A stretch of DNA of 64,000 nt from Squalus acanthias (GCA_030390025.1 CM059431.1:94180001-94244000), one strand, 5' to 3'. Shown: positions 21,441 to 52,198, counted from the first letter of the stretch. The notes: generated by a model not told the origin, from the sequence alone. Translations and numbers: made by a program.

Positions 21441-21518
21441 TTCAGGCATTGCCAAGTTTTTTATCACTGTTGTAAAAGTATTTGCCTTAGCACTTGATGT
21501 GCTCTTTCCTCCTGTAAG

Positions 21519-21588
21519 ATGAAGTCATGTCATTCCAGTAAATCATTCTTCCACGCTGAAATAGTTCTGATTCTGGTCATTGCTTCAG
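21519..21588 (+). CDS. Candidate signal-peptide exon L1 of the IgSF gene (MKSCHSSKSFFHAEIVLILVIAS+G, phase 1)
   Basis: ATG in AAGATG context, hydrophobic core IVLILVIA, donor CAG|GTAAAG. Phase matches both V exons. Confidence 0.55.
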
Positions 21589-22247
21589 GTAAAGTTCTTA
21601 AACTGCATTTATTATTGTATTTATAAAATGAAACTGTCCTGTTATTTAGAATGAATTCAGTTTCACACAAATCATTTTGGATGTAAGCCAATCCCCAGAC
21701 GTAAGTCATTTTATTATCAGTGACACAATGATTTGAATCCAATTAATTCTTTTATAATGGGGAATATAAGCATAAATTTCCATTTTGGGAAACTTTTTTG
21801 CATCTGCAGCCCATCATTTTCCATCCACTAAAATGAATGGGTGAAAAATGATAGACTTGTGGTGTGCAGTTTCCTGATATGAGCTCCAGACCCAACAGGG
21901 GTAGGAAATGTATTTCTTTACTGGATTACTTCAATAAGCTGCTGTATTTTCAGAACCTTTTTGTATCTATGTGCGATTATAAATGATTACATAAATTTAT
22001 GCTGGTACCTATCAGCTAAATGCTCACAGACCCACTTTATCTGCATTAGTTTTGATGAATCGGTTCACAAGTTTTGAGTGAAATTCCTTTGTTTGCTATT
22101 TTGATAAATCATTAATGCATATTATTTGTGAACCCACGATCTTGGAAAGTATTTTCAGGCACCCGAATGTGCAACTACCCCATTCAAATCTGATAACTGC
22201 CTGTTCATATCAACTTGCGGCTTAACAGACCCGGAGAAAGAAATAAT

Positions 22248-22943
22248 GGCCCAGATTTTGTTGAAAAAGTAACGTTTTCTGAACGACGCACACTGTTATT
22301 AATGTACAAATCGGCCAGCAACTTGTGGCAAGGATGAGGTACCCCATGAATTGCGAATCGCCATGCTGGCCGATTTGTGCCACTCTGCCATTAGATTCAT
22401 GAAAACGGAATCTCACACTTAACCTCCGTGTGATTTTCATGAAGTTGTTGCATTTGCACTTTAATTGTCCATTAATTACCCTTTTAACAATGTGATAATT
22501 GTGAATGACTGCCAATCAACTTCTCTTGCCCAGAAAGTGTGGAGACTCATTCGTTCAGGTTGTGAATTGTTTTAGGAGATTTAAAAAATATCAAAAAATG
22601 TCTTACTTTTTGTTTATGTCTCTTTTCTCTCTCCTCTCTTAATCCAATATTTCTTTCTCTCTATTTCTATTTCTGTACTTGATTTGGCATTGAATTCACT
22701 CACTCCAATTCACCTTCCTTCTCAATTCTTTCTCTGTTTTTTTCTTAATCCTTAAATCACATTGGTTAAGGAGATACACTGTTTGTCCCATTGTTCACCG
22801 AGGTCCCAGATGCCCTGTTGCCCTCACTGCACCGTTATCAGATCGCACATCCAGTAACTTTGTGGACAAAAGTTTTTAAAACCTAAGCGTGCACAAACAA
22901 GTCTAACTAACAGAGCATGGCTCACTCCATCAAATTCTGGGCT
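22248..22943. mobile_element. Old non-autonomous TIR element (Harbinger-like MITE)
   Basis: Termini GGCCCAGATTTTG / CAAATTCTGGGCT with flanks AAT/ACT. Confidence 0.55.
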
Positions 22944-23175
22944 ACTGTATCAATGCAATGCAGAAATCCAAAGAGAAATGTTGCTAATCTTGTGGAGAAA
23001 AGAATGATGAATGGTCTAGACTAGCTGTGGTTCATGATTATCTCTGGCTCAGTGTAAAGCTCATAGTAGTCTCCATTAATCTTGTCTTGGTTGTTTGGAG
23101 TGGATGCTCAATATTATTTAGTTATTTCTTGATAATGTGCTTGTTGTAAAAGACTCATGCAGAATCATAGCAAAA

Positions 23176-23600
23176 TAAAGAAAGAACTTGTACTTGTAGA
23201 GCACCTTTCACGACCTCCGGACTTCCCAAAGTGCTTCTCAACTAATTAAGTACCTTTGAAGTGTAGTCACTGTGGTAATGTAGGGAAATGTGGTAGTCAA
23301 TTTGTGCACAGCAGGATCCCACAAACAGTAATAAGATAAATGACCAGCTAATCTGCTCTAATGATGTTGGTTTAGGGATAAATATTGGCCAGCTCAAGAA
23401 AAGAACTCCCTCCTCTTCTTCAAATAGTGTCACGGGATATTTTACATCGATCTGCGAGGGCAGAATGTCCTGGTTTAACATCTCATCCTAAAGACGCCAC
23501 CTCTAATAATACAGCACTCCCTCAGTAGTGCACTGAAGTGTCGGCCTGGAGTGGAACTTTAACCCACAACCTCCTGACCCAGAGTCATGTACGAGTGCTT
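23176..23600 (-). mobile_element. Deu-domain tRNA-derived SINE (SacSINE1-like)
   Basis: Reverse-complement homology to 46148-46470. tRNA-like head at ~23545-23600 and (TCTT)n tail. The family name is from recognition, not a search. Confidence 0.7.
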
Positions 23601-23879
23601 GTATTAGATTCCCCTGTATGTTCTATATCTAGTACAGAGTTAATACAATGAAGCTCAAATACAAATACTTAATACACATTTCTATTTGTAGTATTTTTAG
23701 ACAGATGTTTAGCATGTTTATTTTGCTTAGATCAAATCTGTGAAAAGAATAGAACAAACAGCGGATTCTAATACAAGCACTTGTACACGAGCTTTGCTAA
23801 TCAACATTTCTACCCTGTCTTCTGGAGTGTCACAGACAGCGTGCATTAACAGAAGTGATGTTACCCACAAGATAAGCTT

Positions 23880-24350
23880 GGAACCATAGAAGTTTACAGC
23901 ACAGAAGAACACCATACGGCCCATCGTGTCTGTGCCGGCTCTTGCCTAGCACAATCCAAAACCAATCTCACTGCTCTACTATCTCCCCATAGTCCTCTAT
24001 CTTCATCTGCTTAAAATGTTAATCCACTTTTGCTTTAAATATTGCAATAGTCTTTGCCTCAACCGTTGCCTGTGGCTCTCTCTACCGAAATAAATTTCTC
24101 CTAACCTCTCTCTTTAATCTCTTAGTGACAATTTTAAATTGATCAGCCCTCATTTGATTCCCTAATCAGAATCAATGGCCTTTCCCTATTTACCCTATCG
24201 AAAGCATTCATAATTTTATAAACCTCGATTACATCTCTAACCTTCTCTGCAGTGAAAATAGTCCCAGTATCTCAAATCTTTCCTCATAATTATAGTTTTT
24301 CATCCCGGTATGATTCTAGTCAATCCATGCTTTTTTGCTTTAACAACCTT
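23880..24350 (-). mobile_element. Degenerate CR1 3' fragment
   Basis: CATAGAAGTTTACAGCACAGAAG tail, similar to 7173. Confidence 0.7.
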
Positions 24351-25994
24351 TCAATAATTTCCAGTAATGTCTTTGTGTTCAGTTCCAAGCATAAGTCTTC
24401 CACTTCCCTACAAGAATGAAGGCAAAATAGAATAAATGTTTCCATTCACCAACAGCTCTTCAGTGTTGGAAGGCTGGGATCAACTCTCAAATTCATAGTC
24501 TAGAATCAGGAAAGATTTGTGGTGTAGGGAGACCTAAAGGGACAAAGAAGGGGACAAAAGAATGCAATAATTTATAAAAATACCTGCTAGTTATGACAAA
24601 GTAGATGGTGCCAAATGAATACAACAAATGGCTAATATATAATGGGGTAGAATTTCCATGGTGGTTCACCTACCTCTTGTGGTAACTTTGGCAGAAGATT
24701 GGCAGAAACAGCGGAGAAAGGGCTGGAGATCGAGAGAAACCGAATGGGGGAATATTTTAAAGATATGTTTGTTAGAGATGGGCTTCTTATTTATAACTTA
24801 ATCCTCAAATCAATAAGGTTTTTATACATTGAATATCAGGTATCCCAGATTTATTAAGTATACAGTACGTGTAGTAGCACTTAAACATACACTTAAAAGT
24901 TAATACTTACACCCAGACCTAATGATGGTTGGTTGGGAATTCAAACATGTTACATTTCTGAATTCAGTATCTTTAGGCCTTTCCGAATATAAATGCTTAT
25001 TACGAACAGTCAGTTTTTATACATTTCTCTTACTCCCTCCATGTGACAATCCACAGTTCTGCATTACATAATTATATAAAAGTCAAAATACAATTCCTTA
25101 TAAGGAGAATTTAATTGTCTTAACCCTTATCAATAACTTTACTTTTCCTTACTTAACAAGCTAATTTTTCCATAGACTCCCTTATTTAGTTATCTTATCG
25201 ATAGTTTCACTTGCTACATATAATTGCTATTCAACCAGATGTAACTTTAATTAAATGTCTGTCTTTGATTATGTATTATTTCATACTAATCCCCTGCCTT
25301 TACAGAAACACCAATTTTAAAAAATGACGTTAAGTCAGAAATTTTCCTTTGCAGAACTAACTGTTTTTCCTGCACTTGTTTATCAGCTGATTATAGTTCT
25401 CTGAAATATATGAATCAGTAAGCACTATCATGTCATTTAATTAGGTTTACTGAAGTGACTAAGCTGATCATTGCATTAAAATCAGTCCTCACTCAATAAC
25501 CCAGTGTACTTTAAATTGACTTAAACTTCTCTGGTTAACAGGCAAAGGCTAAAAGTTACTGTTACTACAATATAAAGAGAAACCAATAGCAGTATAACAT
25601 TAGCAAACTTAAGGACAGTCAGATTAACTCTTTCCTTACATATTGACCTGAAGTTTATTTTGAGCACTAACCCAGAGTGGAGTTACAGACAAATTTCTTA
25701 TCCCACTGGCTGTGTTTGACTCTAAGGGGATAATTTTAACCCCAAAGAAAAGGTGGGTTTGGGGCAGGAGTGTAAGATGCATCACCCTGCAAAGTAAAAT
25801 GAGGGAGAGGTGACGTGCAATGCCGATTTAACGTCACCACGGAGAAATTGGAGCTTTGTGCTGAGTTCAGCGCTGGGCCCTAAGCTTGCCATATAAACTC
25901 AGCATGCAAGCAGGCTCACAGAGCCACTGTCAGGACCTCATAAAAGGACACATGCATCTTTCAGGTAAGTTTGCATTTAAGCTTTTGGACTGGG

Positions 25995-26973: not shown

Positions 26974-27152
26974 CTGGGCCAAACAGGCTTTCAGCATTTT
27001 ACTATTGTACTGGTTTTTTTTGAAATCGACATTGTTTTTTTTTATTTTACTGAAGTCGTGGCTTGCTGCAATAGATGTTAAAAGTTTTTTAAGTGTGTAT
27101 GGATTACTGCTGGATGCTTGCAAGGCCTCGGATGGTAAAGGAAGGACTCTGA

Positions 27153-27280
27153 GAAGACAGAAAAAGCTGCAAATACTCAGCAGGTCAGGCAACATCCATG
27201 GAGAGTGCAACAGAGATCACGTCTCAGGTCAAGATGCTACCTGACCTGCTGCGTATTTCCAGCATTTTATGCTGTCTTTT
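27153..27280. repeat. Palindromic Penelope-like terminal-repeat derivative
   Basis: Inverted arms AATACTCAGCAGGTCAGGCAACATC / GATGCTACCTGACCTGCTGCGTATT. A related half lies at ~39160-39270. The Penelope assignment is from recognition only. Confidence 0.5.
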
Positions 27281-28977
27281 CAGATTTACAGCATCCATGC
27301 CCAGAGGGAAGAGGAAGATGCAGAAGAGGACGAAACAGAAGAGGAGGAAGCAGGAGAGGGGGAAACAGAAGAGGAGAAAGCTGAAGAGGAGGAAGCAGAA
27401 GGAAGAATGCAACCCAGACAGCCTCATTCTGGCTGGGATATCCGGGATGGAATTATCTACCTGCGGTCCCAGTGACCACAACCCCAATTCTCCTTTCAAC
27501 ACCTTACCTTCCCTCTGTTACTGACTATCACTGTGTCCTCTTGGCCACAATGCTGAAATAAAAGCCAACACAAAACAAAATTTCCAATCCAACATTATAC
27601 ATCTATCTTTATACATCTTAATACATCTTAATATGACATCAAGAAATGAACTCATCAACCTTATGCATTCTGTTAGTGACTGTCTTGTGTGTGCCTTTGC
27701 CTATCCTCGTGATGTCACGCAGTGCTACCCCAGTGCTGCAGCATGGCTGGTGGAAGTCTGCTGACTTTCAGTGGGGTTCACTGCAAATGGCCTTGCAGGA
27801 CGACCTTGAGGAGCTGGTGGTTGGGAGTGTCAAATCAAGTGATGGTGTTTCTTCTTCTTCATCTTCTTCTTCACTCTCCTCTCCCTCGACTTGGCCAACC
27901 ACTGGCTGGGCAGGCTGTATTTCTTGGGTGTGTGAAATGAGGAAACCACAAGGGTAGAGTTGTGGTGAGGGGAGTGCGGGAAAGGAACAGGTGCATGCCA
28001 GAAGTTGGATAACCTATGAGGATATCAGCATCTTGTATCCTTTCTGCCCCGCTGCTGGCCAAGGGCTCAGCCATGCCTCTGCCAAGAATGGCCAGCAACG
28101 GGGTGAGGTGAAGCTAGGAATGGGAAGTGTACAGATTGTTGGTAGGTGAGTGATTGGGGGGTGGGGGCAGTCATGCATTGAGCAGTGTATGAGGCTAATG
28201 CTGCAGTTGGTAGGAGACGGCTTTTGAAGATGCATTCACTGACCTTGACCAGTGGTCTGAGGTCATGAATCTTCTTTGGGCACTGGAGCCAGGTGGTGCT
28301 GGCAGTGACGGCCTCAGTGATCTGGGCCCACGTTTTTCTTTCTGAAGGGCCTCCTGGCCCCTGTGGGTAGAGGACCTCTCTTGCAGTGTTGACCCCCTGC
28401 ACAAAGCTGGAGTGCTACGTGCAAGACCCTGGTTTGCTGAGCCATTTGTGTTAGTGCTGAAGCACTTTTCCCATTTTTTGAGGTTTCGAAGGGAATTCAG
28501 CTCTAAGTGTCGAAGACTCCCATTTGGGACTTCTTTTTAATGTTACTTTTTTAAAAGGCAGTAAGGGCTAAAAGCTGCATTTTTTTACTTCATTTTAATT
28601 TTTATTAGTTCTGATTTAAATTTCCCACAATGCCTAGCGAATTCCATAGCTTCGCTTCCAGAGGCTGTTAGAATCTTCGACTCCCATGCCTGCACTAATG
28701 CCACCAGGAGGGCGTTACATGGTAAGTTAGCGCTGGGCTACAAATCTTTAGCCCCCAGTGCAAATTTTTCCCTGCTTCCATTTTCAACGGCCGTTAACCC
28801 GAGTTTCTGGTGACAGCGGCAACTCTCGTGGTGGCCACGAATTTTTCCCCCTTTGTGTTTAAACCCAAAGCCTCTCCTCTATAATGGACTATTCAGCCTC
28901 TCTTCCCTGATGCACTTTTCAATCTCTGCTCCTTGGTAACCTCAACCTTTCCTCTCTGATGCACTGTTCAAGTGTTC

Positions 28978-30253
28978 TCTGCTGTGCTGCTCAGTCTCTC
29001 CTCTCTCTGATGTGTTGCTCAGTCTCTCCTCTCTCTGATGTGTTGCTCAGTCTCTCCTCTCTCTGATGTGTTGCTCAGTCTCTCCTCTCTCTGATGTGTT
29101 GCTCAGTCTCTCCTCTCTCTGATGTGCTGCTCAGTCTCTCCTCTCTGATGTGTTGCTCAGTCTCTCCTCTCTCCGATGTGTTGCTCAGTCTCTCCTCTCT
29201 CTGATGTGCTGCTCAGTCTCTCCTCTCTGATGTGTTGCTCAGTCTCTCCTCTCTCCGATGTGTTGCTCAGTCTCTCCTCTCTCTGATGTGTTGCTCAGTC
29301 TCTCCTCTCTCTGATGTGTTGCTCAGTCTCTCCTCTCTCTGATGTGTTGCTCAGTCTCTCCTCTCTCCGATGTGTTGCTCAGTCTCTCCTCTCTCTGATG
29401 TGTTGCTCAGTCTCTCCTCTCTCTGATGTGTTGCTCAGTCTCTCCTCTCTCTGCTGTGTTGCTCAGTCTCTCCTCTCTCTGATGTGTTGCTCAGTCTCTC
29501 CTCTCTCTGATGTGTTGCTCAGTCTCTCCTCTCTCCGATGTGTTGCTCAGTCTCTCCTCTCTCTGATGTGTTGCTCAGTCTCTCCTCTCTCCGATGTGTT
29601 GCTCAGTCTCTCCTCTCTCTGATGTGTTGCTCAGTCTCTCCTCTCTCTGATGTGTTGCTCAGTCTCTCCTCTCTCTGATGTGTTGCTCAGTCTCTCCTCT
29701 CTGATGTGTTGCTCAGTCTCTCCTCTCTCTGATGTGTTGCTCAGTCTCTCCTCTCTCCGATGTGTTGCTCAGTCTCTCCTCTCTCTGATGTGTTGCTCAG
29801 TCTCTCCTCTCTCTGATGTGTTGCTCAGTCTCTCCTCTCTCTGATGTGTTGCTCAGTCTCTCCTCTCTGATGTGTTGCTCAGTCTCTCCTCTCTCTGATG
29901 TGTTGCTCAGTCTCTCCTCTCTGATGTGTTGCTCAGTCTCTCCTCTCTCTGATGTGTTGCTCAGTCTCTCCTCTCTCTGATGTGTTGCTCAGTCTCTTCT
30001 CTCTGATGAGTTGCTCAGTCTCTCCTCTCTCTGATGTGTTGCTCAGTCTCTCCTCTCTCTGATGTGTTGCTCAGTCTCTTCTCTCTGATGAGTTGCTCAG
30101 TCTCTCCTCTCTCTGATGTGTTGCTCAGTCTCTCCTCTCTCTGATGTGTTGCTCAGTCTCTCCTCTCTCTGATGTGTTGCTCAGTCTCTCCTCTCTCTGA
30201 TGAGCTGCTCAGTCTCTCCTCTCCGATGAGCTGCTCAGTCTCTTCTCTCTGAT
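28978..30253. repeat. Minisatellite, 28-bp unit GATGTGTTGCTCAGTCTCTCCTCTCTCT, ~45 copies
   Basis: Direct tandem periodicity with 26-bp deletion variants and CCGA/ATGAG variants. Confidence 0.97.
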
Positions 30254-30639
30254 GCAATGTGCAATTGATTTAAAAAATGTTAATGCAATAAAAAAATTGA
30301 TCTTTGGTGTCTATTTTGTTTTATTCATTGCTCTCAGCTCTAAAACTAGCACTGTGAGCGGAGCCTTGCTCTGCACTCAGAACCCATACAATCTGGAAAA
30401 TCGTCAAAAGCTGCTGCATTGAAGGTCTGCAAAGACTGCCTGGCCTTTGCTGTGAGAGGACCTGGAGGCAAAATGAGCAGCAGCTCTCAGATATTTTTGC
30501 ACTTCCACTTCTTCTTCTTCCACCACCACCACCACCACCACCAACACGTAACAGTAACCTGCAGCCGATAGTCAGCTATCCAAATGTGCTCCTGCCAGGT
30601 TTCACATTCGTGGTTCAGAACAGGCGTGCTTCACGTAGA

Positions 30640-38164: not shown

Positions 38165-38302
38165 GCATTCTGGGAGTTGTAGTGCCCCTGTGCGACATGC
38201 ACAGTAACACTGGTGTATTCTTGGAACTGCAGTATTCTACGTGGTTGAGCTTCTTCAGTCGTGTAGGCCCTAGGTACACAATGCAAGGTCTGGGAATGCA
38301 GC
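38165..38302 (-). promoter_or_regulatory. Candidate promoter P2: ZNF143/Staf (SBS) motif cluster
   Basis: GCATTCTGGGAGTTGTAGT (38165-38183) is the reverse complement of ACTACAACTCCCAGAATGC. Degenerate copies at 38215-38233 and ~38286-38302. Confidence 0.55.
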
Positions 38303-38540
38303 AGATCTTAAGTGCACAATAGATCTAGGAAAGTGAGCGTCAGTTCAAGCTATTTTTGATAACTGGATTAATCTATAGTTCTGCGGCTGGATTCAAACCC
38401 GTAACTTTTGTAAGATAGAAAGGCCACTACAGATGTCTTCTTTTCCCACAACCACCAAGAATGAGGATCATCATTCTATCCGTGTAAATGGGCATAATGT
38501 AGGTCATCTGACTCGGAGGAATCCAGGATGCAATCTGGGA

Positions 38541-38589
38541 ATGAATTCTAGGAAATGCGTACTGTACCTTTGTGTTATTAGTGTTCTTG
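38541..38589 (+). CDS. Candidate signal-peptide exon L2 of the IgSF gene (MNSRKCVLYLCVISVL+G, phase 1)
   Basis: 49 coding nt with a basic n-region and hydrophobic core, donor G|GTATGA. An in-frame upstream ATG lies at 38433. Confidence 0.5.
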
Positions 38590-39289
38590 GTATGAGTTTG
38601 TCCACACCTGGAAAGCAGCTTCTGGTTCCAAGCCAGGTCGTGCAAAACTGAAAAAATAATTGTTGGAAGAAAAAGCTATTTCTCCAAATATTCAAAAATT
38701 ACTTTGGTAGTATTTGTTCCTGGGCATTAATAAAATTTTGAAGACGGGAATCTCCAGCAGAGAGCAGTTTCAGTCCTGATACTTTTTGTCTACAAGGGCC
38801 AATGTCAAGGGGGAAGGCACTTCCACTTTCCATGGCATTTCTACACATGCTCTTTTATTATTTATATTTTTAATACACAGACACCACTCTCTCTCCCTTT
38901 CCCTTTTTTGCAGTTAATCATAGGAGCCAAATGGGTGTCATTAAAACAACACATATCTGGTTTCATTGAGGCCAGGACAACATACGGACAGAAAATCCTG
39001 CATGGTCCGCAGACCTCAATGTGTGCTCCCAGTAAGAGACGCTCCCCATCAGCAGGGAAAATGCAGCGTTACCATTCTGATCTCCATCTGTTGCCCTCCC
39101 TGCTCCTCTTTGTTTTGCTCAGTCCTGTAAAAGGGGTCTCCTCCTGACCATGGAAATTTTGAAGAAAGGCCTCACCTGAAATGTTAACCTGCTATTTCTA
39201 TTTTAAACAGTTGTGTATTTCCAGCATTTTCTATTTTTTAAATTTCAGATTCTAGCATTTACAATTTTTCTTTTCATTTTAAATTTTAA

Positions 39290-39999
39290 GACTAGGTTGG
39301 TCCAGTCACAAATAACCTGATATTTACAGGGAAAAAGGCCGAAGACCTGGAACGCGGAGGTTCTGCTGATCTTAATGGCCTCATTTGCATCTAGTAGCTC
39401 CGTCGCCCGCACGGCAGAGAACAGTAGCGTCAGGAGGCTGTAGTGGAGACCCTTGGCAATGGTCCCCGGCAATTGTGGGGGGTGGGGCGCGGTGAAGGAA
39501 GCTCCGGTCAGCAATCATTTTGGGGGGTTGGGAAGGATCGGCAATAGGGAGAGGGAAGGTTGGTAATGGGGAGGGGGTGGATCGGCAATAGGGAGGGGGT
39601 AGAATCGGCAATCAGGAGCGGGGGAGGTCGGCAATCGGGAGGGATGGGGCCTGTGATCAGGAGGGCTAGGGGGATGGAGGCTGGAGATCGTGGCTGAAGG
39701 CTTCCTTGAGGAGCCTGGAGGGAGAACTGCTCCTCTTGGCCCACAAGGAGTGTTGAAAGAGCCATTTACCTTGGGGAACCCGTGCAGCACGCAAAGTTTC
39801 AAATCAGGCTTCCAATTGCACTGTAGCAGCCCAATTTAAATATGCTAATAAGCGTGTCTATGACGGGACACTCGGACGCCCCGATATCTGCTGCCGGAAT
39901 AATAGCGGTGGGCGCAAACGTGCCGTGTTAGGATCGGGTTACGCGGATTTCATTTTTTAACCCTCCAACCCTCTCCTGCCCGCACACAAAATCTAGGCT
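39290..39999. mobile_element. Non-autonomous Harbinger-like element with G-rich internal repeats
   Basis: Repeated GGATCGGCAATAGGGA units and terminus AAAATCTAGGC. Shares a block with 52890-52960. Confidence 0.5.
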
Positions 40000-42900
40000 G
40001 ACACGCCAATGTAATATTGAGGGAGTACTGCACTGTCGGTGGCGTACGGATATGCAGATCAGGGAGGTGAACACATGGCTGAAGGAGTGGTAAGGGAAAG
40101 AGGAGTTCCTTTTCTGGGACACTGGCACCAGTATTGGGACAGGAAGGAACTGGACCATTTTGACGGGCTCCACCTGAACCGGGCTGAGACCAGGGTCCTA
40201 GCGGAAAGGATAAATAGGGCATTCACAGGGACTTTAAACCAGTAAATGAGGGGATGGCTCAGGTGGAAAAGGTAGTATAAAAAATAGTTCTAAAACAAAC
40301 GAAAGGGAAGAGAGCAGAGTAATAGTCAGAAATTGTGCTTTAGGCACTACAGGTAAAGGGAAAACTAAAAGATGTAAAGTAATTAAACCAGGAGAGAGAA
40401 ATAAGAATTGTGTGAGTAAAACATTAGAGCAGGACAGGTTAGGGTGTGTGGCCCAGATGAGTGTTATTTATACGAACACACGTATAAGTATAAGAAACAA
40501 ATTGAATGAACTGCAGGTGCAAATTCAACTTGGAGGGTATGACATGGTAGCCATTACTGAGACATGGCTGTAAGACAGTCAGGACTGGGAACTAAATATG
40601 CCAGGTTATAAGGTCTACAGGAAGGATAGGGAAAATGGCAGAGGGGGAGGAGTAGCCTTAGTGATTAATGAAATCACTTCAATGATAAGAGAGGATATAA
40701 CGAGAGGTAGTGGAAACTTTATGGTTAGAATTAAGAAATAGAAAAGGATTTAAGACTATAGTAGGAGTTATGTATAAGACCCCCTGGTAGCAGCTGTGAA
40801 GTGGTAGAATGCATAATTGCAGAGATTGGACAAGCAAAGGCAGAATGGTTTTAATGGGGGATTTTAACTTTCATATAGATTGGTATAAGCAGACTAGCTC
40901 ATGTCAGAAAGCTAGTGAATGTCTTAAGTGTTAATAGATGTTAACGGATACGATGTGATTGGGATTACAGAGACGTGGCTCCAGAACAATCAAGGCTGGG
41001 AACTGAACATCCAGGGGTATTCAACATTCAGAAAGGATAGAATAAAAGGAAAAGGGGGTGGGGTAGCATTGCTGGTTAAAGAGGAGATTAATGCAATAGC
41101 TAGGAAGGACATCAGCTTGGAGGATGTGGAATCAATATGGGTTGAGCTGCAGAACACCAAAGGGCAGAAAACGTTAGTGGGAGTTGTGTACAGACCTCCA
41201 AACAGCAGTAGTGAGGTGGGGGAGGGTATGAAACAGGAAATCAGAGGTGCGTGCAAAAAAGGCACGGCAGTTATCATGGGTGACTTTAATATGCATATAG
41301 ATTGGGCTACTCAAACTGGAAGCAATACGGTGGAGGAGGATTTCCTGGAGTGTTTAAGGGATGGTTTCCTAAACCAATATGTTGAGGAACCAACTCGAGG
41401 GGAGGCCATCCTGGACTGGGTGTTGTGTAATGAGGAAGGACTAATTAGCAATCTTGTGGTACGAGGCCGCCTGGGGAAGAGTGACCATAGTATGGTGGAG
41501 TTCTACATTAGGATGGAGAAGGAAACAGTTAAGTCAGAGACCATGGTCCAGAACTTAAATAAGGGCAACTTTGAGGGTATGAAGCGTGAATTGGCGAGGT
41601 TAAATTGGCAAGCGATATTTAAGGGGCTATCAGTGGAAGGGCAATGGCAGACATTTAGAGATCGCATGGATGAACTACAACAATTGTACATCCCTGTCTG
41701 GCGTAAAAATAAAAAAGGGAAGGTGGCTCAACCATGGCTAACAAGGGAAATCAGGGATAGTATTAAAACCAAGGAAGTTGCATACAAATTGGCCAGAAGT
41801 AGCAGCAAACCCGGGGACTGGGAGAACTTCAAAACTCAGCAGAGGAGGACGAAGGGTTTGATTAGGGCAGGGAAAATAAAATATGAAAGGAAGCTTGCAG
41901 AGAACATTAAAATGGACTGCAAAAGCTTCTATAAATATGTAAAAAGAGAGGTTAGTAAAAACAAACGTAGGTTCCCTGCAGTCGGAAACAGGGGAAGTCA
42001 TAATGGGGAACAAGGAAATGGCAGATCAATTGAACAAGTACTTTGGTTCGGTGTTTACTGTGGAGGACACACACAACCTGCCGGAAATAAAAGGGGTCAG
42101 AGGATCTGGTAAGAGGGAGGAGCTGAGGGAAATCCTTATTAGTCAGGAAAAGGTATTGGGGAAATTGATGGGACTGCAGGCTGAAAAATCCCCGGGGCCT
42201 GATGGTCTGCATCCCAGAGTACTTAAGGAGGTGGCCTTGGAAATAGTGGATGCATTGACGATCATTTTCCAACATTCCTTAGACTCTGGATCAGCTCCGA
42301 TGGAGTGGAGCTTGGCCAATGTAACCCCTCTTTTTAAAAAAGGAGGGAGGGAGAAAGCAGGGAATTATAGACCGGTCAGCCTGACATCGGTCGTGGGTAA
42401 AATGATGGAAGCAATTATTAAAGATGTCATAACAGACCATTTGGAAAGTGGCGATATGATAGGTCCAAGTCAGCATGGATTTGTGAAAGGGAAATCATGC
42501 TTGACAAATCTTCTGGAATTTTTTGAGGATGTTTCCAATAGGGTGGACAGGGGGGAACCAGTAGATGTGGTGTATTTGGACTTTCAGAAGGCCTTCGACA
42601 AGGTCCCACACAAGAGATTGGTGAGCAAAGTTAAAGCACATGGGATTGGGGGTAATGTGTTGACGTGGATTGAGAACTGGTTGGCACACAGGAAACAAAG
42701 AGTAGGAGTAAATGGGTACTTTTCAGAATGGCAGGCAGTGACCAGCGGGGTACCGCAGGGTTCGGTGCTGGGACCCCAGCTGTTTACATTATATATTAAT
42801 GATTTGGACGAAGGGATTAAATGTAATATCTCCAAATTTGCGGATGACACTAAATTGGGAGGCAGTGTGAACAATGAGGAGGATGCTCGGAGGCTACAGA

Positions 42901-45900
42901 GTGACTTGGACAGGTTGGGTGAATGGGCAAATGTATGGCAGATGAAGTACAATGTGGATAAATGTGAGGTTATCCACTTTGGTGGTAAAAATAGAGAGGC
43001 GGACTATTACCTGAATGGTGGCAGATTAGGGAAAGGGGAGGTGCAACGAGACCTGGGCGTCATGGTACATCAGTCACTGAAGTTGGGAATGCAAGTGCAG
43101 CAGGCAGTCAAGAAAGCATACGGAATGATGGCCTTCATAGCAAGGGGATTTGAGTACAGGAGTAGGGAGGTGATGCTGCAGTTGTACAGGGCCTTGGTGA
43201 GGCCACACCTGGAGTATTGTGCGCAGTTTTGGTCTCCTAACTTAAGGAAGGACATTCTTGCTATTGAGGGAGTGCAGCGAAGGTTCACTAGATTGATTCC
43301 TGGGATGGCCGAACTGACATATCAAGAAAGATTGGGTCAACTGAACTTGTATCCTCTGGAGTTCAGAAGAATGAGGGGGGATCTTATAGAGACATTTAAA
43401 ATCCTGACTGGTTTAGACAAATTAGATGCGGGCAGAATGTTCCCAATGTTAGGGAAAACTAGAACCAGGGGTCACAGTCTAAGGATTAAGGGGAAGCCAT
43501 TTAAGACTGAGTTGAGGAGAAACTTCTTCACCCAGAGAGTGGTGAATCTATGGAATTCTCTTCCACAGAAGGTTGTTGAGGCCAGTTCGCTAAATATATT
43601 CAAAAGTGAGTTAGATATAACACAACTAGGGGGATCAAGGGGTATGGCGAGAAAGCAGGAATGGGGTACTGAGGTAGCATGTTCAGCCATGAACGCATTG
43701 AATGGCGGTGCAGGCTCGAAGGACCGAATGGTCTACTCCTGTACCTATTTTCTATGCTTCTATGTTAAGTGTATTCAGGATAGTTTTCTGCAACAATATA
43801 TCCAAGAACCAACAAGGGGGCAGGTCATATTAGATTTAGTAATGAGAAATGAGCCAGATTTCGTTAATAGCCTAACGGTCCATGAACATTTATCTAATAG
43901 CGATCCTAATATGATTGAGTTCAATGTAGTGTTTGAATGGGGAAACGCAAAACAGCTACTAAGATTCTAGATGCGATGCGACAGAGTCTGTCCACAGTAA
44001 ACTGGACAAATTTGCTAATGGGTAAAATGACAGTAGATCAGTGGGAGGTTTTCAAAAAAGAATTTAATGTGATACAGAACCAGTTTTTACCCCTAAGGGG
44101 TAAGAGGTCTACTTGCCAAAAAAAAACAGCCATGGACGACTAAAAAGGTAAGGGACAACATAAAACTAAAAGAAAAAGCATTGAAAAATGCAAAAACTAG
44201 CACAGATCCAGGCAATTGGGAGAGATACAAAGAACAACAAAAGGAGACAAAACAGATAGTAAGAGCTACAAAAAGGGAGTATGAAAAGAAACTTGCAAGG
44301 GCTATCAAAATCAACACAACATTTTTTTACAATTATATTAGGAAAAGAGGATGGTCAGGAGCAATGTCGGCCCCTTAAAAACTGATAATGGTGATATTGC
44401 AATAGAAAATAAGGAAATGGCGGACATGTTGAATAATAACTTTACATCAGTATTTACAGTAGAGGAAGAGGATAGCATGCCAGACATCCCAAGAAAACTA
44501 ATATTAAATCAGAGATGCAGATTCACCAAAATTAAAACATTAGCAAAATAACAGTAATGAAGAAAATAATGGCACTAACAAGTGACACATCCCCAGGACC
44601 AGATGGTTTCCATCCCAGGATTTCAAAAGAAGTGAGAACATTGCAGGTTCCCTAACTATAATCTTCCAAATTTTTTCGATTCAGGAACTGTTCCTTTAGA
44701 TTGCAAAATTGTGCATGTCACTCCAATATTTAAGAAAGGTGAGATAGGGAAACCAGGGAATTATGGACCAGTTAGCCTAACATCTGTTATCGGGAAATTA
44801 CTAGAGTCTATAATTAAGGATAGAGTGACTGAACATCTTGAACATTTTCAGCTGATCAGAGAGAGCCACCATGGATTAGAAAAGGGTAGGTCATGCCTGA
44901 CGAACCTGTTGAATTGTTTGAAGAGGTGACTAAAGTAGTGGACAGGGGAATGTCTATGAATGTTATTTATATGGACTTCCAGAAGGCATTTGATAAAGTC
45001 TCTTGTAAAAGACTGTTAGCTAAAGTTGAAGCTCATGGAATTGAAGGCAAATTATTGACCTGGTTAGGAGATTGGCTGAACGGCAGGAGACAGAGAGTAG
45101 GGATAATGGGCAGGTACTCAAATTGGCAGGATGTGACTAGTGGAGTCCCACAAGGATCTGTGTTGGGACCTCAGCTATATACCGTATTCATTAATGACGG
45201 AGATGATGGGATAGAAAGCCACGTATCCAAGTTTGCCAATGACAAAAAGATAGGCGGCATTATAAGTGGTGTAGAAGCAGAAAATGAAAAAGAAATATTA
45301 ATAGATTAAACAAATAGGCAAAACTGTGGCAAATGGATTTCAATGTAGACAAATATGAGGTCATCCACTTTGGACCTAAGAACAGGGTACTTTCTAAAAT
45401 GTGAAAAGCTAGAAACAGTGGATATCCAAAGAGACTTGGGGGATTCAGGTACATAGACCATTAAAATGTCATGAACAGGTACAGAAAATAATCAAAAAGG
45501 CTAATGGAATGCTGGCCTTTATATCTAGAGGACTAGAATACAAGGGGGTAAGAGTTATGCTACAGCTATACAAAACCCTGGTTAGACCACACCTGGAGTA
45601 TTGTGAGCAGTTCTGGGCACCACACCTTAAGAAGGATATATTGGCCTTGGAGGGAGTACAGCGTAGATTTACCAGATTGATACCTGGACTCCAAAAGTTA
45701 AATTATGAGGAGAGATTACACAAACTAGGGTTCTATTCCCTGGTATTTAGAAGTTAAGAGGTGATTTGATCGAAGTTTTCAAGATATTAAGGGGAACAGA
45801 TAGGGTAGATAGAGAGGAACTATTTCTGCTGGTTGGGGAGTCTAGGTCGAGGGGGCGTAAGCTAAAATTTAGAGCCAGCCCTTTCAGGAATTAAGTTAGG

Positions 45901-46147
45901 AAACACTTCTCCGCGCAAAGGGTGGTGGAAGTTTGGAACACTCTTCCGCAAATGGCAATTGATGCTAGGTCAATTGTTAATTTTATACCTGAGATTTTTT
46001 TTATACCTGAGATAGATTTTTGTTAAGGTATTAAGGGATATGGGGCAAAGGCGGGGACATGGAGTTAGGTCACAGATCAGCCATGATCTCATTGAATAGC
46101 AGAACAGGCTCAAGGGGATAAATGGCCTACTCCTGTCCTATGTCCTA
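40000..46147 (+). mobile_element. Old CR1 (ORF1 end, ORF2, 3' end) interrupted by a young CR1
   Basis: DGLHLN at 40039-40245, endonuclease to 40931, resuming at 43765 through RT motifs to the (CCTATGT)n tail. Confidence 0.88.
40932..43764 (+). mobile_element. Young 5'-truncated CR1 with near-intact ORF2
   Basis: ORFs 40928-42112 and 42003-43970 are separated by one frameshift. 8-bp TSD TTAAGTGT (40924-40931, 43765-43772). Confidence 0.93.
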
Positions 46148-46470
46148 TGTGCTGTCTTTTGGATGAGATGTTAAATCGAGGTCCCGTCTGCCCTCTCAGG
46201 TGGATGTAAAAGATCCTATGGCACTATTCAAAGAAGAGGAGAGGTGTTCTCTCTGTGTCCTGGACAATATTTATCCCTCAACCAACATCAATAAAAAACA
46301 GATTATCTGGTCATTATCTGATTGTCGTTTGTGAGTCCTTACTTTGCGCAAATTGACTGTCACATTTCCTACATTACAACAGTGACTATACTTCATTGGT
46401 TGTAAAGTGCTTTGGGATGTCCTGAGTTCATGAAAAGCATTATATAAATACAAGTCTTTCTTTCTACTTT
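46148..46470 (+). mobile_element. Deu-domain SINE, 5'-truncated (duplicate at ~50027-50342)
   Basis: Homologous to 23176-23600. Confidence 0.7.
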
Positions 46471-46661
46471 CTATTGCCAAAGGATACCTACCTGCTAACT
46501 GGCAGGCATCTCAGTGCACGCAGGAGGTCAAAGGGCATCATCATTCCAGAGCCTGAGTTAACATCCCCCCAAAACTATAAAATCAACAGTGGGTTGAGGG
46601 GTGAAAAATCTGGCTACATGTGTTGTACAAGATTCAAATATGAATCAAATTGTGAAATAAT

Positions 46662-47818
46662 GGGCAAGATTTTAACTTTGAGGCTGGTAGGGAGCCGAGG
46701 GTGGAAGTCCGGGATTGCGGTCGGGAAACCCGGGAGAATTTAACGGCAGGGCCTCATTACCATTTTTTTTCTCTGTTTCCCACCTGCAGCCAGCCAGATT
46801 GAGAGGCTGAGTAGCTGTTGGGCGGGGAGGCCTGCAGCACCAGGTTGCAGCTGGGGAGCAGAGAGGTGGGAGGGAGGGATCGGAGGCTGGGGGTTTGGGG
46901 TTGGGGGCTGGGGATCGGAAGGTGGGGTCAGAGGGGGTCGGAAGGCCAGGATCGGGGGTGGGGAGGGTGGGGTGGGAGATTGGAGCAGGGGTTGGAAGGC
47001 CGAGATTGGGGGTGGTTGGGAAGGCCGGGTCAACAGGCCAGGATTGGGGGGGTGGGAGTGTCGGAGGGTGGGGTCGTAAGGCCGGGATCGGAGGGGATCG
47101 GAGCTCGTGGATCGGGTCCGAAGGCCGGGATCGGAGGGGGTCAGAGAGCCGGAGGTGGGGTCGGAATGCCGGGATCGGAGGGGGTCGGAGAGCCGGAGGT
47201 GGGGTCAGAATGCCGGGATCGGAGGGGGTCGTAAAGCTGGAGGTGGGGTCGGAATGCCGGGATCGGAGGGGGTCGTAGATCGTATGAGGGAGTCAGGGGC
47301 TGGGGCCGGGGATCAGGGGCCTCATGGTGGGGTGGGGGCGGGGGGTTGGAGGCCTAGTAGGGGGTGATGGGAGGCCTCGAGGGCAGGGGGGGGGAGATCA
47401 GAGGCCTCGTGGGGGAGGTCGGGGTGAGATCAGAAGGGACGGGGTGGGGTGCGGTCCAAATGCGGGGGATTGGCAAGACAGCAACACTGGATTCAGCAGC
47501 TAAGTGGAAAGGCACTTACCTCCTGAATCCAGCAGTCCTCACCTTCCTTCAACTGCCGGGTTCCCTGAGGTTAGGGAAATCCGCCCGCCCACAGTTAACT
47601 TTAAAATGGTACTTCAAAAAGAGGCACGCAGCCTCATTGTAATATTTAAAGTGCCAGCCCGCCTCCTGGGAGCAGGTTGGCTTCCCGCCCCGTCCTGCCT
47701 ATGTTCAAACCGGAAGTGGGCGGGTATGGAGGTGGGCTGGGGTCGGGATTCAGATTTCTAATACTGTAACCTCCCACCCAACCGAAACTGCCCGTTTTTT
47801 GGAGTTAAAATTCCCCCC
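46662..47818. mobile_element. MITE family B with internal 44-bp G-rich minisatellite
   Basis: Termini GGGCAAGATTTTAACT / AGTTAAAATTCCCCCC, AAT TSD. Confidence 0.8.
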
Positions 47819-47948
47819 AATGATTGTATTTTTAAATGTACAACATAATTTACATTTGTATATCTTCTGCTCAGTTTCTGTTATGAAATGTAAATCTATT
47901 TTTTGGATAATATTGAAATCATTTTTGGTTGAACAGTTTTCTTTACAG

Positions 47949-48278
47949 ATGCTGATGATCGAGAATCTGTTGCAGCTTCAGTCGGAGGAACAATAACACT
48001 TCGATGTAGAAACTCCTCTCTGGGAAATCTGACTCAAGTTACCTGGACCAAAGCAAGCAACAATAAATTTGAAACTGTTATTACTTACTTACCTACTCTC
48101 AATAAGACATACACATCCAATGACAGCCAGAGACTGGTGCTGTTACAGACTCCCCAAGAGCCCTACAGTCTGCAGATACAGAAGCTGCAGATTTCTGATT
48201 CAGGGAATTACACCTGCACAGTGAATGGACTTAATTTACAGCAACACACCAAATGGCACCTTCTTATTTCCAAACCAG
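47949..48278 (+). CDS. Ig V-set domain exon V1 of an IgSF receptor (CD226/TIGIT/CD200R-like; orthology uncertain)
   Basis: Acceptor TTTTCTTTACAG, donor CAG|GTAGG, 330 nt, phase 1-1, open frame. Contains GGTITLRC, LTQVTW, SLQI..LQISDSGNYTC; the two Cys are 70 residues apart; 5 N-glycan sequons. Confidence 0.9.
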
Positions 48279-48618
48279 GTAGGAACTTCCTGCTTTCACT
48301 CTTCTCATCTCTCTGTGTCAAAAGAAAAACATGAACAAACTTTACAAATCAGTTTCAGTGTTTTGTAGATATTAAGTTTGAAATTTCTAATGTAATTAGC
48401 TGCAATGGTAACAGAGAACTATTAAAACTATAATAAACTGTTACATTATGGCTCCGATATTTACTGGAGCAGCATTTCCAAGCCAGGGGATGGGAGGGGG
48501 GAGGAGTTCTGGCCGGGAAACCGGGCAGACTGGGTTTCCCCAAACGTTGTGGAGATTGCGTGCGTGCGTGTTTTTATTAAAACAGGATCCCCACCTGGAA
48601 GCCACCCTGATTTATAGT

Positions 48619-49327
48619 CCAGCTATGTGTTTGGGAGATAGGCCTGCCATCGTTGAATAACTGTGATTATAGGCCAGGCGTGAGATGTGGATGAGAGTTT
48701 GACTAGGTGCTTGGTGGGTGGGTGAGTGGTGGGGGTGTGGTGATTTGTGCACTTTGTACAGACTGAGGTTTAGATGCTGGTATGTAGGACCACCCGAGTG
48801 AGGTCATTGAATTCCTTCCGGCACTGTGTCAGGCTGCATACAACCACACTACTGGCTGAGACCTCCTGGGCCACTTCCCTCCACATTGCCCTGAAGATCT
48901 GGGGCAGTGTCCGGGAACAGCACTGCCCTCCTTCGCTCCACTCCCGCGACCAATGCCTCCAATGCCTCGTCTGTGAAACGACGAGCTCTCTCCCTGGGAG
49001 TGGGATCAGCCATTACGATCAGGGGATTGAGTTGGTTGCAGGTTGCCTTCAGAGCCAGCAATGCTGATAATGAGGACCTCCCCTTTAATAGCTGGAAGGG
49101 GCCAGTGTGAAGGATCATTCCCGATTGTATTGCATCTGAAATTCATTATCGATCTGCTGGTAGTGCCCCTGTAGTGCCCTACTGAGGTCATTAGTGCTTG
49201 ATTTAGCGCTCCAGTTCTTTCCAGGAGCGCTAACAGCCAATTTAGGGGAGGCTCAGAATCATTAGCGCCTGGTGCTAATTTTTCAGGATTTTATAAATTA
49301 GCCGAATATATACCGAATTTTTCCCCC
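48619..49327 (-). mobile_element. Harbinger right end with Myb exon-1 remnant (partner of the element starting at 53668)
   Basis: RARRFTDEALEALV in ORF 48849-49118. Terminus ACCGAATTTTTCCCCC. Confidence 0.8.
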
Positions 49328-49757
49328 ATACTTCTATGAGATTCCCACTCAATTATCTCCTTTCAAGACTAAAGAAGCCCAGTTTCTCCAGTCTTTCTCT
49401 GTACACCAAATCTTTGATGACTGGGATCAGCCTTGTAGCTCTTTGCACTACATCCATGCCCTGATTACTAGTCTTACATGTTGGTGAACTGAACACAATG
49501 CTCAATGTGCAACCTGACTAGAGCACTGTGCAGATTTTGACATATAAAGGCTGATTCCATGATTGGATGATTCTAGTATGGAATAGCACTCACTGGGAGT
49601 ACGAGTTGGGAAATCGTAGGCCTGCAGTGCCTCATTTTCCATTAATTTTCTGCCCAGTGCACTCAGCAAGCACCAATCTGCTCTGGGAAAACTCAACCAT
49701 GGAATAAACCCTTTAGTGTGATGGGGCTAGTGGGGCGGGGTGGGGGGGGGAGAGACA

Positions 49758-49935
49758 GTGGATGGTGTCGAGCTTCTTGAGTGTTGTTGGAGCTGCACTC
49801 ATCGAGGCAAGTGGAGAGTATTCCATCACACTCCTTACTTGTGCCTTGTAGATGGTGGAAGGGCTTTGGAGAGTCAGGAGGTGAGACACTCGCCGCAGAA
49901 TACCTAGCCTCTGACCTGCTTTTGTTGCCACAGTA
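49758..49935 (-). mobile_element. Fragment of a second CR1/L2-group LINE family (related RT piece at 56623-56930)
   Basis: KAGQRLGILRR..YKAQVRSVMEY here; NYRPISLLSIISKVME in ORF 56523-56837. Confidence 0.7.
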
Positions 49936-50531
49936 ACATGGAGTTAGGTCACAGATCAGCCATGATCTCATTGAATAGCAGAACAGGCTCAAGGGGATAA
50001 ATGGCCTACTCCTGTCCTATGTCCTATGTGCCGTCTTTTGGATGAGATGTTAAACCGAGGTCCCATCTGCCCTCTCAGGTGGATCCCATGGCACTATTCA
50101 AAGAAGAGGAGAGGTGTTCTCTCTGTGTCCTGGACAATATTTATCCCTCAACCAACATCAATAAAAAACAGATTATCTGGTTATTATCTCATTGTCGTTT
50201 GTGAGTCCTTACTTTGCGAAAATTGACTGTCGCATTTCCTACATTACAATAGTGACTATACTTCATTGGCTGTAAAGTGCTTTGGGATGTCCTGAGTTCA
50301 TGAAAAGCATTGTATAAATACAAGTCTTTCTTTCTTTTTTCTATTGCCAAAGGATACCTACCTGCTAACTGGCAGGCATCTCAGTGCACGCAGGAGGTCA
50401 AAGGGCATCATCATTCCAGAGCCTGAGTTAACATCCCCCCAAAACTATAAAATCAACAGTGGGTTGAGGGGGAAAAAATCTGGCTACATGTGTTGTACAA
50501 GATTCAAATATGAATCAAATTGTGAAATAAT

Positions 50532-51747
50532 GGGCAAGATTTTAACTTTGAGGCTGGTAGGGAGCTGAGGGTGGAAGTCCTGGATTGCGGTCGGGAAACC
50601 TGGGAGAACGGGTTTCCCTCAGGCCCTGCCAAATTTAACGGTAGGTCCTCATTAACATTTTTTTCCAATGTTTCCCGCCTGCAGCCAGCCAGATTGAGAG
50701 GCTGAGTAGCTGTTGGGCGGGGAGGCCTGCAGCACCAGGTTGCAGCTGAGGAGCAGAGAGGAGGGAGGGAGGGATCGGAGGCTGGGGGTTTGGGGTTGGG
50801 GGCTGGGGACCGAAGGAGGGGGTCAGAGGGGGTCGGAAAGCCAGGATCGGGGGTGGGGTGGGAGATTGGGGCAGGGGTTGGAAGGCCGAGATTGCGGGGG
50901 GTTGGGAAGACCGGGGTCAGAGGAGGCTGGGATAGGGGGGGTGGGTGTGGTCAGCAGGCCAGGATCGGGGGGGTGGGAGTGTCGGGGGGGCGGGGTGGGA
51001 AGGCCGGGATCGGAGGGGGTCGGAGCTCGTGGACGGGGTCCGAAGGCCGGGATCGGAGGGGGTCGGAGAACCGGAGGTGGGGTTGGAATGCCGGGATCGG
51101 AGGGGGTCGGAGAGCCGGAGGTGGGGTCGGAATGCCGGGATCGGAGGGGGTCGGAGAGCCGGAGGTGATGTCGGAATGCCGAGATCGGAGGGGGTCGGAG
51201 AGCCGGAGGTGGGGTCAGAATGCTGGAATCGGAGGGGGTCATAGATCGGGTGAGGGAGTCAGGGGCTGGGGCCGGGGATCAGGGGCCTCATGGTGGGGTG
51301 ATGGGAGGCCTCGAGGGCGGGGGGGGAGATCAGAGGCCTCGTGGGGGAGGTCGGGGTGAGATCAGAAGGGCCGGGGGGAGGGGTCCAAACGTGGGGGATT
51401 AGCAAGACAGCAACACTGGATTCAGCAGCTAAGTGGAAAGGCACTTACCTCCTGAATCCAGCAGTCCTCACCTTCCTTCAACTGCCGGGTTCCCTGAGGT
51501 CAGGGAAATCCGCCCGCCCACAGTTAACTTTAAAATGGTACTTCAAAAAGAGGCACGCAGCCTCATTGTAATATTTAAAGTGCCAGCCCGCCTCCTGGGA
51601 GCAGGTTGGCTGCCTGCCCCGTCCTGCCTATGTTCAAACCGGAAGTGGGCGGGTTTGGAGGTGGGCTGGGGTCGGGATTCAGATTTCTAACACTGTAACC
51701 TCCCACCCAACCGAAACTGCCCGTTTTTTGGGGTTAAAATTCCCCCC
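50532..51747. mobile_element. MITE family B, duplicated copy
   Basis: Same termini and AAT TSD as 46662-47818, with a longer minisatellite. Confidence 0.8.
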
Positions 51748-51865
51748 AATGATTGTATTTTTAAATGTACAACATAATTTACATTTGTATATCTTCTGCT
51801 CAGATTCTGTTCTGAAATGTAAATCTATTTTTTGGATAATATTGAAATCATTTTTGGTTGAACAG

Positions 51866-52198
51866 TTGATGCTGATGATCGAGAATCTGTTGCAGCTTCA
51901 GTCGGAGGAACAATAACACTTCGATGTAGAAACTCCTCTCTGGCAAATCTGACTCAAGTTACCTGGACCAAAGCAAGCAACAATAAATCTGAAACTGTTT
52001 TTACTTACTTACTTACTCTCAATAAGACATACACATCCAATGACAGCCAGAGACTGGTGCTGTTACAGACTCCCCAAGAACCCTACAGTCTGCAGATACA
52101 GAAGCTGCAGATTTCTGATTCAGGGAATTACACCTGCGCAGTGAATGGACTTAATTTACAGCAACACACCAAATGGCACCTTCTTATTTCCAAACCAG
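51866..52198 (+). CDS. Duplicated Ig V-set exon V2; original acceptor deleted, cryptic in-frame AG at 51864-51865
   Basis: 6 substitutions versus V1, open frame, donor intact. May be a pseudo-exon. Confidence 0.6.

Follow-up and report, generated by a model that had tools for sequence, protein, structure and literature searches.

The stretch of DNA analysed here, henceforth the window, comprises 64,000 nucleotides (nt) of Squalus acanthias (contig C7:94180001-94244000 in our numbering, i.e., GCA_030390025.1 CM059431.1); own-genome searches were made in the 3.7-Gb assembly. On its plus strand lie a leader exon (L1), a candidate second leader (L2) and two V-set immunoglobulin (Ig) exons (V1 and V2), listed in Table 1 with the other features of the locus. 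The four exons, with their coordinates and phases, had been proposed in a first-pass annotation, and all were confirmed by reading of the sequence; the accompanying view that they belong to a poorly characterised receptor gene of the immunoglobulin superfamily (IgSF), with a leader and a phase-1 V architecture, is supported as well. With a probability of about three in four, we regard the window as holding the 5′ half of an uncharacterised shark V-set receptor gene, which has one leader exon and a V exon recently copied in tandem.

L1, V1 and V2 are real, far above chance, and the exon structure is read directly from the DNA. The gene is predicted to encode a small receptor, anchored in the membrane as a type-I protein, whose ectodomain is a V-set Ig domain. 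L1 would be exon 1, encoding the signal peptide and joined to the V exon by a phase-1 splice. The second V exon (V2), 98% identical, arose when a 2.5-kb segment was recently duplicated on the spot. The next exon, encoding a stalk and the transmembrane (TM) helix in phase 1 to 2, lies 13 kb past the window. The 5′ part of the gene exists in three recent copies, of which the one in the window is termed copy A.

Table 1. Features of the locus and its surroundings. Plain coordinates count from the first letter of the window; ORF, open reading frame; UTR, untranslated region.
Feature	Location	Strand	Remarks
Probable 5′ UTR of exon 1	21395..21518	+	conserved stretch upstream of the start codon; DNA-level conservation
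L1 leader exon	21519..21588	+	ATG at 21519; 70 nt; ...TTCAG/GTAAAG donor; phase 1
L2 candidate leader	38541..38589	+	ATG at 38541; 49 nt; ...CTTG/GTATGA; phase 1
RVT_1 ORF	44890-45306	+	E 4e-11
Duplicated segment, first copy (V1 and 44-nt minisatellite)	46057..48567	+	blastn
V1 exon, V-set Ig	47949-48278 (distal acceptor start 47937)	+	AG/GT flanks; 330 nt; phase 1-1
Duplicated segment, second copy (V2)	49936..52487	+	blastn
V2 exon, V-set Ig	51866-52198	+	AG/GT flanks; 333 nt; phase 1-1
DDE_Tnp_4 ORF, Harbinger type	54373-54888	+	E 4e-10
Weak RVT_1 ORF	57328-57663	+	E 2e-5, below cut-off
Copy A	C7: L1 94201519, V1 94227879, V2 94231862, TM 94257038		own-genome search
Copy A TM exon	window-equivalent 77051-77161		phase 1 to 2; reads AGINQMSYLSVAIRALFGIVIMSVTGVICCRRCFYKT
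Copy B	C7: L1′ 94355621, V′ 94378470, TM′ 94393781, last exon 94417421		~150 kb downstream
Copy B tail exons	window-equivalent 220484-220535 (52 nt) and ~237424-237505 (last exon)		last exon ends ...EHDYFERINSVYDTSRPNSQ
Third copy	unplaced contig C3244		own-genome search with orthologue P0159
Nectin-3-like V (L042)	C7:93339733-93340062		0.84 Mb upstream; E 6.6e-42
CD226-like V with TFP (L007)	C7:93872779-93873189		0.31 Mb upstream; E 1.8e-9
PVR/JAML-like V (L043)	C7:94736181-94736510		0.49 Mb downstream

Both V exons match the Pfam V-set family PF07686 (V1: E 1.1e-14, 55 bits; V2: E 5.2e-15, 56 bits; cut-off 26), and a search for the Ig-core pattern returned exactly two V-like frames in the window and three in the surrounding 254 kb. 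V1 has two possible AG acceptors, the distal one situated 12 nt upstream of the proximal one. A protein search with V1 against 1.84 billion representatives gave 3 matches below 1e-30 and 62 below 1e-10. The four best short matches, each with one matched V stretch, are all chondrichthyan: an uncharacterized protein of Heptranchias perlo (isoform X1, P0159 in our numbering, 218 amino acids (aa); isoform X2, XP_067841581.1, P0003), Heterodontus francisci XP_067890534.1 (P0004), Cetorhinus maximus LOC144682500 (XP_078401018.1, P0153, 217 aa; XP_078401019.1, P0005, 213 aa) and Callorhinchus milii A0A4W3IWP7 (P0007), the latter species also having A0A4W3J617 (P0154).

V1 is 61-67% identical to its shark orthologues. 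These relatives consist of an L1-type leader, one V domain, a TM segment and a tail ending in ...DY.ERINS.Y.TSRP..., of about 45 residues in the full-length models P0159 and P0153. A single V is present in all four chondrichthyan representatives and in the three further cluster members that were read. The isoforms X1 and X2 of Cetorhinus differ by four residues, exactly at the position of the two acceptors of V1. The chondrichthyan proteins are unstudied, and public annotation already lists them as uncharacterised or under automatically assigned names such as “opioid-binding protein/cell adhesion molecule-like”. The unnamed family occurs in sharks and chimaeras; its remoter relatives come from ray-finned fishes and from a frog.

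L1 is identical at 19 of 23 positions to the first 23 residues of Heptranchias P0003 (tblastn, E 7e-7) and at 13 of 23 to Cetorhinus P0005, and in the proteins of both species the leader is joined straight to the V domain. Its best 9-residue Kyte-Doolittle mean is 3.39, that of L2 being 2.79 (hydropathy only), and its sequence is identical across all three genome copies. We take L1 to be a genuine leader exon, encoding a signal-peptide-like predicted product. Positions 21395-21587 align to residues 59-122 of the Heterodontus model P0004, a mis-extended N-terminus; because a stop codon lies inside this alignment, the conservation upstream of the start codon is at the DNA level and not coding. 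With the leader identical at 19 of 23 residues and the V domain at 61-67%, the gene belongs with the chondrichthyan single-V receptor, the join between leader and V being predicted from the orthologues and from the ends of two sequencing contigs.

These contigs come from four sequencing runs, taken by guess to be RNA, which were aligned to window positions 38200-58199. The X1 contig (record 7, 384 nt) matches 47934-48195, 262 nt without a single difference, and its first 122 letters do not align there; the X2 contig (record 15, 433 nt) matches 47934-48274 with 10 differences, and 92 upstream letters do not align there. Both stop matching at 47934, three letters before the distal start of the V1 exon. 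The CAG in between is also the ending of L1, where L2 ends in TTG. The break point fits, but does not prove, the splicing of L1 to the distal V1 acceptor. The X1 contig carries four V1-only bases in its range (48069, 48080, 48093 and 48160), and V1 of copy A therefore appears in the run of X1. Among the matches listed for the four runs, no joints were found at the donors of V1 and V2 or at L2.

The duplication that embraces the two V exons is directly visible. The two segments align over 2577 columns with 92% identity including gaps (blastn), the gaps lying mostly in the minisatellite and the ungapped blocks being 97-98% identical; an unduplicated spacer of 1.37 kb (48568-49935) separates them. 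V1 and V2 differ at 6 of 330 bases, five of these differences being non-synonymous, and their donors are identical; the copy-specific bases stand at 48024, 48069, 48080, 48093, 48160 and 48218. A 9-nt deletion removed the proximal acceptor of V2; its distal acceptor (...TTTTTGGTTGAACAG), frame, Cys-Trp-Cys and donor are intact, and the retained acceptor is the same distal one where both contigs begin on V1. We read V1 and V2 as a recent tandem copy of one exon and not as a designed two-domain layout: the two phase 1-1 V exons of the first-pass annotation are both there, but they are near-identical duplicates, which had gone unnoticed. For a two-V product among the transcripts of copy A, the odds appear roughly even. 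A GC-rich 44-nt minisatellite stands some 0.7 kb upstream of each V exon (47035-47279, 5.6 copies; 50944-51240, 6.8 copies).

The assembly contains three copies of the gene, 94-99% identical: copy A in the window, copy B on the same contig and a third one on C3244. From window position 183 up to about 78669 (window-equivalent), A and B remain collinear, at 94-98% identity. Nearly the whole window forms one arm of a segmental duplication of ~65-79 kb with several indels, the other arm of which starts ~150 kb downstream. The 254 kb examined contain just three V exons, one of them the single V of copy B, which matches both the V1 and the V2 segment.

The TM exon that was expected beyond base 64000 was found there, 13 kb past the window (match L015:3047-3160, i.e., C7:94257047-94257160), and is 55% identical to residues 136-173 of P0159. 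An in-frame TAA lies directly behind the exon in copy A, should its donor be unused. The exon reads ...SVAIRALFGIVIM... in A, ...SVLIRALFGIVIM... in C3244 and ...SVAILAPLGIAII... in B, such that A and C3244 have an Arg where B has a Leu. Between A and B, 12 of its 111 nt differ (10 non-synonymous) versus 24 of 642 flanking nt (Fisher p = 0.003 in a post hoc test), and the orthologues resemble B at the differing positions. A protein search with the A-type TM exon (40 aa) returned no match. The intron before the copy A exon is filled by a tandem array of ~12 kb (window-equivalent 64803-76869), with self-matches stepping 27 or 54 nt; copy B has ~3 kb of the same array, and the copy on C3244 has ~5 kb.

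Behind copy B, two tail exons follow. The last one is single-copy in the whole assembly; the 52-nt one occurs once in the 254 kb examined and was not found in the 50 kb of C3244 examined. Neither tail exon (NQEE.SVQNG... and ...DY.ERINS.Y.TSRP) was found in the 64-150 kb after the V exons of copy A. Since the tail exons stand only behind B, copy A duplicates the gene in part, namely its 5′ portion, and no exon with an immunoreceptor tyrosine-based inhibitory motif (ITIM), as had been anticipated for the window copy, was found for it in these stretches. The C-terminus of the Heptranchias isoform P0003 corresponds to another reading frame of both copy B tail exons, i.e., this model skips the TM exon and would, therefore, be a soluble form with a frame-shifted end.

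The claim of two alternative leaders did not survive the comparison: relatives have only the L1-type leader, and L2 found no match in any of the six relatives compared. On the DNA level, L2 resembles L1 by nothing beyond chance matches of 8-17 nt. A scan for leader-like ORFs (ATG plus 13-32 codons, a hydrophobic core and a phase-1 G/GTR donor; criteria set after L1 and L2 had been seen) found four on the plus strand of the window and none on the minus strand, one of which (L2) is inside the 26-kb intron between L1 and V1, while 30 block shuffles gave 1.2 ± 1.0 per 64-kb strand; L2 is thus at chance level. The 401 nt around L2 are present only in the three gene copies, at 98-100% identity, which speaks against a repeat. 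Each of the three preserves the L2 ORF intact, a conservation uninformative on function at such low divergence, and the bin over L2 (38200-38866) has next to no cover in the four runs, which is evidence neither way. Most likely, L2 is a chance open frame in unique intron DNA. Elsewhere in the L1-L2 interval, a 28-nt minisatellite (28976-30254; 46 copies, 95% matches) creates long artificial open frames on the plus strand.

The AlphaFold2 model of V1 (predicted local distance difference test score, pLDDT, 87.3) has nine strands, A, B, C, C′, C″, D, E, F and G. C20, W33, Y88 and C90 are invariant in a 16-sequence alignment (A1). Nine residues vary among the V copies (9, 26, 41, 45, 49, 66, 91, 95 and 96), and six of these (41, 45, 49, 91, 95 and 96) are located on the GFCC′C″ face of the model, in strands C′ and F and in the loops C′C″ and FG. 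We infer that the protein would reside on the cell surface and bind a partner via this face, as nectins and CD226 do, albeit without their AX6G/T(F/Y)P lock-and-key.

Among solved structures, the best sequence match of V1 is mouse CD226 D1 (E 3.4e-7), with NLTQVTWTK aligned to NLTQVEWTK; with the 16-sequence family profile, CD226 D1 reaches E 3.9e-19. Next in line are pIgR, IgLON, CD96 and nectin-1. Foldseek places the V domain of nectin-1 on top (TM-score 0.83) and also lists CD166, Nav beta4, JAML, CD226, CAR, CD96 and TIGIT. The C-strand motif of the PVR/nectin family is (V/I)(S/T)Q; LTQVTW in the shark gene has Leu in place of Val/Ile, and mouse CD226 D1 reads NLTQVEW. LTQVTW itself is present, and the C-strand likeness to CD226 seen at first pass is borne out by the best solved match.

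The PVR/nectin family is defined in PMC10486284 by an AX6G lock (C′-C″) and a T(Y/F)P key (FG loop). The key is absent from all four V copies, as already noted at first pass for the window, and from the four chondrichthyan orthologues tested; TFP occurs in four of five other nectin-family-like V exons of the same genome. No lock is found in the four V copies or in the four orthologue V domains, one match in P0153 lying in the cytoplasmic tail; among the five other V exons, only the nectin-3-like one has AX6G. An ESM Atlas look-up of P0159 returned generic small V-set clusters, and because CD47-like, CD7, CD226 and TIGIT score alike (all 0.96-0.98), no family can be named from it. For the MDIR receptors of skate, considered as another possible affiliation, a literature search turned up one brief mention. 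CD96, CD226 and TIGIT are listed as one conservation group in an excerpt of PMC13262535, which holds nothing shark-specific on them.

The nectin-3-like, CD226-like and PVR/JAML-like V exons within 1 Mb (Table 1) make up a cluster of nectin-family-like genes. On human 3q13, NECTIN3 and CD96 are neighbours. Two near-identical TIGIT-like V exons (L009 and L010; ...CIFHTFPNGKLEGKIYLDV) are found on contig C5 at ~128.46 and 128.65 Mb, with HTFPNG and human TIGIT as the best solved match (E 6.5e-12), and two nectin-1-like V exons on contig C339 (L006 and L008; ...CSVTTFPVGVQEKRISL) match mouse nectin-1 D1 (E 1e-18). We considered the gene as an orthologue of CD226, CD96 or TIGIT and rejected this assignment: from the missing lock and key and the clear family members elsewhere in the genome, it would be a divergent, unnamed offshoot in a nectin-receptor gene neighbourhood.

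The introns had been described as filled with transposable elements. This was partly checked: three of 14 intron or flank ORFs match RVT_1 or DDE_Tnp_4 (Table 1), the other 11 matching no Pfam family. Contig depth runs into the thousands at 42.2-46.9, 49.5-50.9 and 56.2-58.2 kb, indicating high-copy repeats.

Several observations weigh against the gene model put forward here. No direct L1-V1, V1-V2 or V-TM joint was seen, both contigs ending inside V1, and the RNA nature of the runs is a guess. The protein collections hold no Squalus acanthias protein for this gene and, consequently, no annotated model for comparison. The changes among the four V copies are mostly non-synonymous (5-10 changes per pair; pN/pS ~0.9 to 2.8 for pairs with a synonymous change), and purifying selection since the duplications is therefore not demonstrated, such that the window copy could be decaying; pN/pS on so few changes cannot separate drift from selection. 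The 2.3 kb that follow the TM exon in copy A contain neither AATAAA nor ATTAAA, which leaves a simple short-tailed transcript unsupported. Moreover, C3244 is 98.4% identical to A over 9.9 kb and may be an alternative haplotype, not a third locus.

Copy A would probably specify a one-V or two-V product whose membrane anchor contains an Arg and whose tail is short or missing; we infer both the V exons included and the 3′ end of the transcript. Alternatively, copy A would be an expressed but non-functional partial duplicate that is drifting, with promoter, leader, V and TM copied and the tail exons not. We hold this to be possible, although the odds are against it. The homology between A and B does end ~1.5 kb past the TM exon, copy A lacks the tail exons and has no nearby poly(A) signal downstream of TM, and the V changes, mostly non-synonymous, are about as frequent as those in introns. 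L1, V1, V2 and TM of copy A nevertheless keep their frames and splice sites, which at ~2% divergence is expected even without selection, and at the acceptor the contig that carries the V1-specific bases ceases to follow the genome. Against drift also stands the TM exon, in which the divergence from B far exceeds that of the flanks and of which A and C3244 share the derived sequence. That divergence (12/111 versus 24/642) would suit a paired receptor set, with A and C3244 bearing a membrane Arg and no tail (adaptor partner) and B a tyrosine tail: the Arg distinguishes A and C3244 from B, the orthologues resemble B at the TM positions, the tail exons lie only behind B, and an in-frame TAA follows the copy A TM exon if its donor is unused. 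We consider such a set doubtful, as no poly(A) signal is nearby, the tail of B reads without a canonical ITIM, the statistics are post hoc on small counts, and the Arg near the outer helix end may be juxtamembrane only, the orthologues having K/R a few residues further out. The same doubt attaches to the wider proposal of a young cartilaginous-fish paired-receptor system set among nectin-3-like and CD226-like genes, in which B would be tailed, A and C3244 would be tail-less Arg copies with fast-changing V, and A would give rise to a doubled-V, adaptor-coupled counter-receptor. That six of the nine variable V residues lie on the GFCC′C″ face is what one would expect if a ligand or pathogen decoy drove the change.

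The model of the first-pass annotation, in which two alternative leaders and two V exons are spliced into one- or two-domain isoforms, has become improbable. All phases fit, and L2 has a plausible n-region, a hydrophobic core, a G/GTATGA donor and an ORF intact in three copies, yet one L2-like ORF per such intron is expected by chance, every chondrichthyan model starts with an L1-type leader, six relatives lack a match to L2, and in both contigs the three letters ahead of the acceptor agree with L1 (CAG) but disagree with L2 (TTG). For its two-V part, it can be said that V2 keeps an intact donor and the acceptor in use at V1, and that distant relatives have near-identical tandem V domains (59-100%, six of seven parsed); against it stand the 98% identity of V1 and V2 as copies and the one V of all chondrichthyan relatives. 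Least likely of all is that uncollapsed haplotypes in the assembly merely simulate V1 and V2, or the three copies of the gene, as identities of 94-99% and the location of one copy on an unplaced contig might suggest: V1 and V2 are 3.9 kb apart on one contig, with the unduplicated 1.37-kb spacer, the 9-nt deletion and six substitutions to tell them apart, and A and B, also on one contig, differ in their satellite (12 kb versus 3 kb), in their V exons (two versus one) and in their alignment offsets. In addition, an outside contig carries the exact V1 alleles, though it possibly comes from the same animal.

Under the preferred reading, one leader exon and a V exon copied in tandem, L1 and the V exons are parts of a real gene whose family is conserved across sharks and chimaeras; this family adjoins nectin-3-like and CD226-like genes and yet has lost the lock-and-key residues used for partner recognition. 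The locus is a clean, datable case of IgSF receptor growth by exon duplication, partial gene duplication and divergence of the membrane segment. If the copies with the charged anchor are functional, they would provide an early-vertebrate example of the theme of paired activating and tail-bearing receptors; if not, the locus amounts to an ordinary immune-type gene that was duplicated recently and has one copy in decay. The most interesting point is whether the Arg-bearing, tail-less copies pair with the tail-bearing one.

Compared with the chondrichthyan gene models, the window copy has the same leader (MKS.H..K...), a V 60-67% identical (53% for P0154 in alignment A1), the same four-residue acceptor choice and the same type of TM exon (...ICCRR.FYK). 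The models differ in their single V and, when full-length and from sharks, in their cytoplasmic tail; in the window copy, the V exon is present twice and tail exons are lacking. Tandem V domains in one predicted protein are shared with the multi-V relatives in bony fishes and frog (P0028 from Silurus, P0072, P0031, P0044 from Astatotilapia, P0041 from Hyperolius and P0015 from Polypterus), gene predictions which are only 26-43% identical to V1. Within the multi-V proteins, V-V identity is 59-100% (pairwise alignment, 6/7 parsed; P0088 left out), indicating that doubling of the V exon, with both copies kept in the model, is recurrent and lineage-specific in the wider family.

With CD226, CD96, TIGIT and the nectins, the shark gene has in common the V-set fold, the C strand NLTQV.W.K and a contig shared with nectin-3-like and CD226-like V exons; it differs by the absence of lock and key, and CD226 has two different Ig domains. 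KIR, SIRP, PILR, CD300 and the NITR of fish are paired activating/inhibitory IgSF receptors. The shark locus differs from these in that the tail of B reads without a canonical ITIM; what it would share with them are recent, near-identical ectodomains and the coexistence of a tail-less type with a basic membrane segment and a tyrosine-tailed type.

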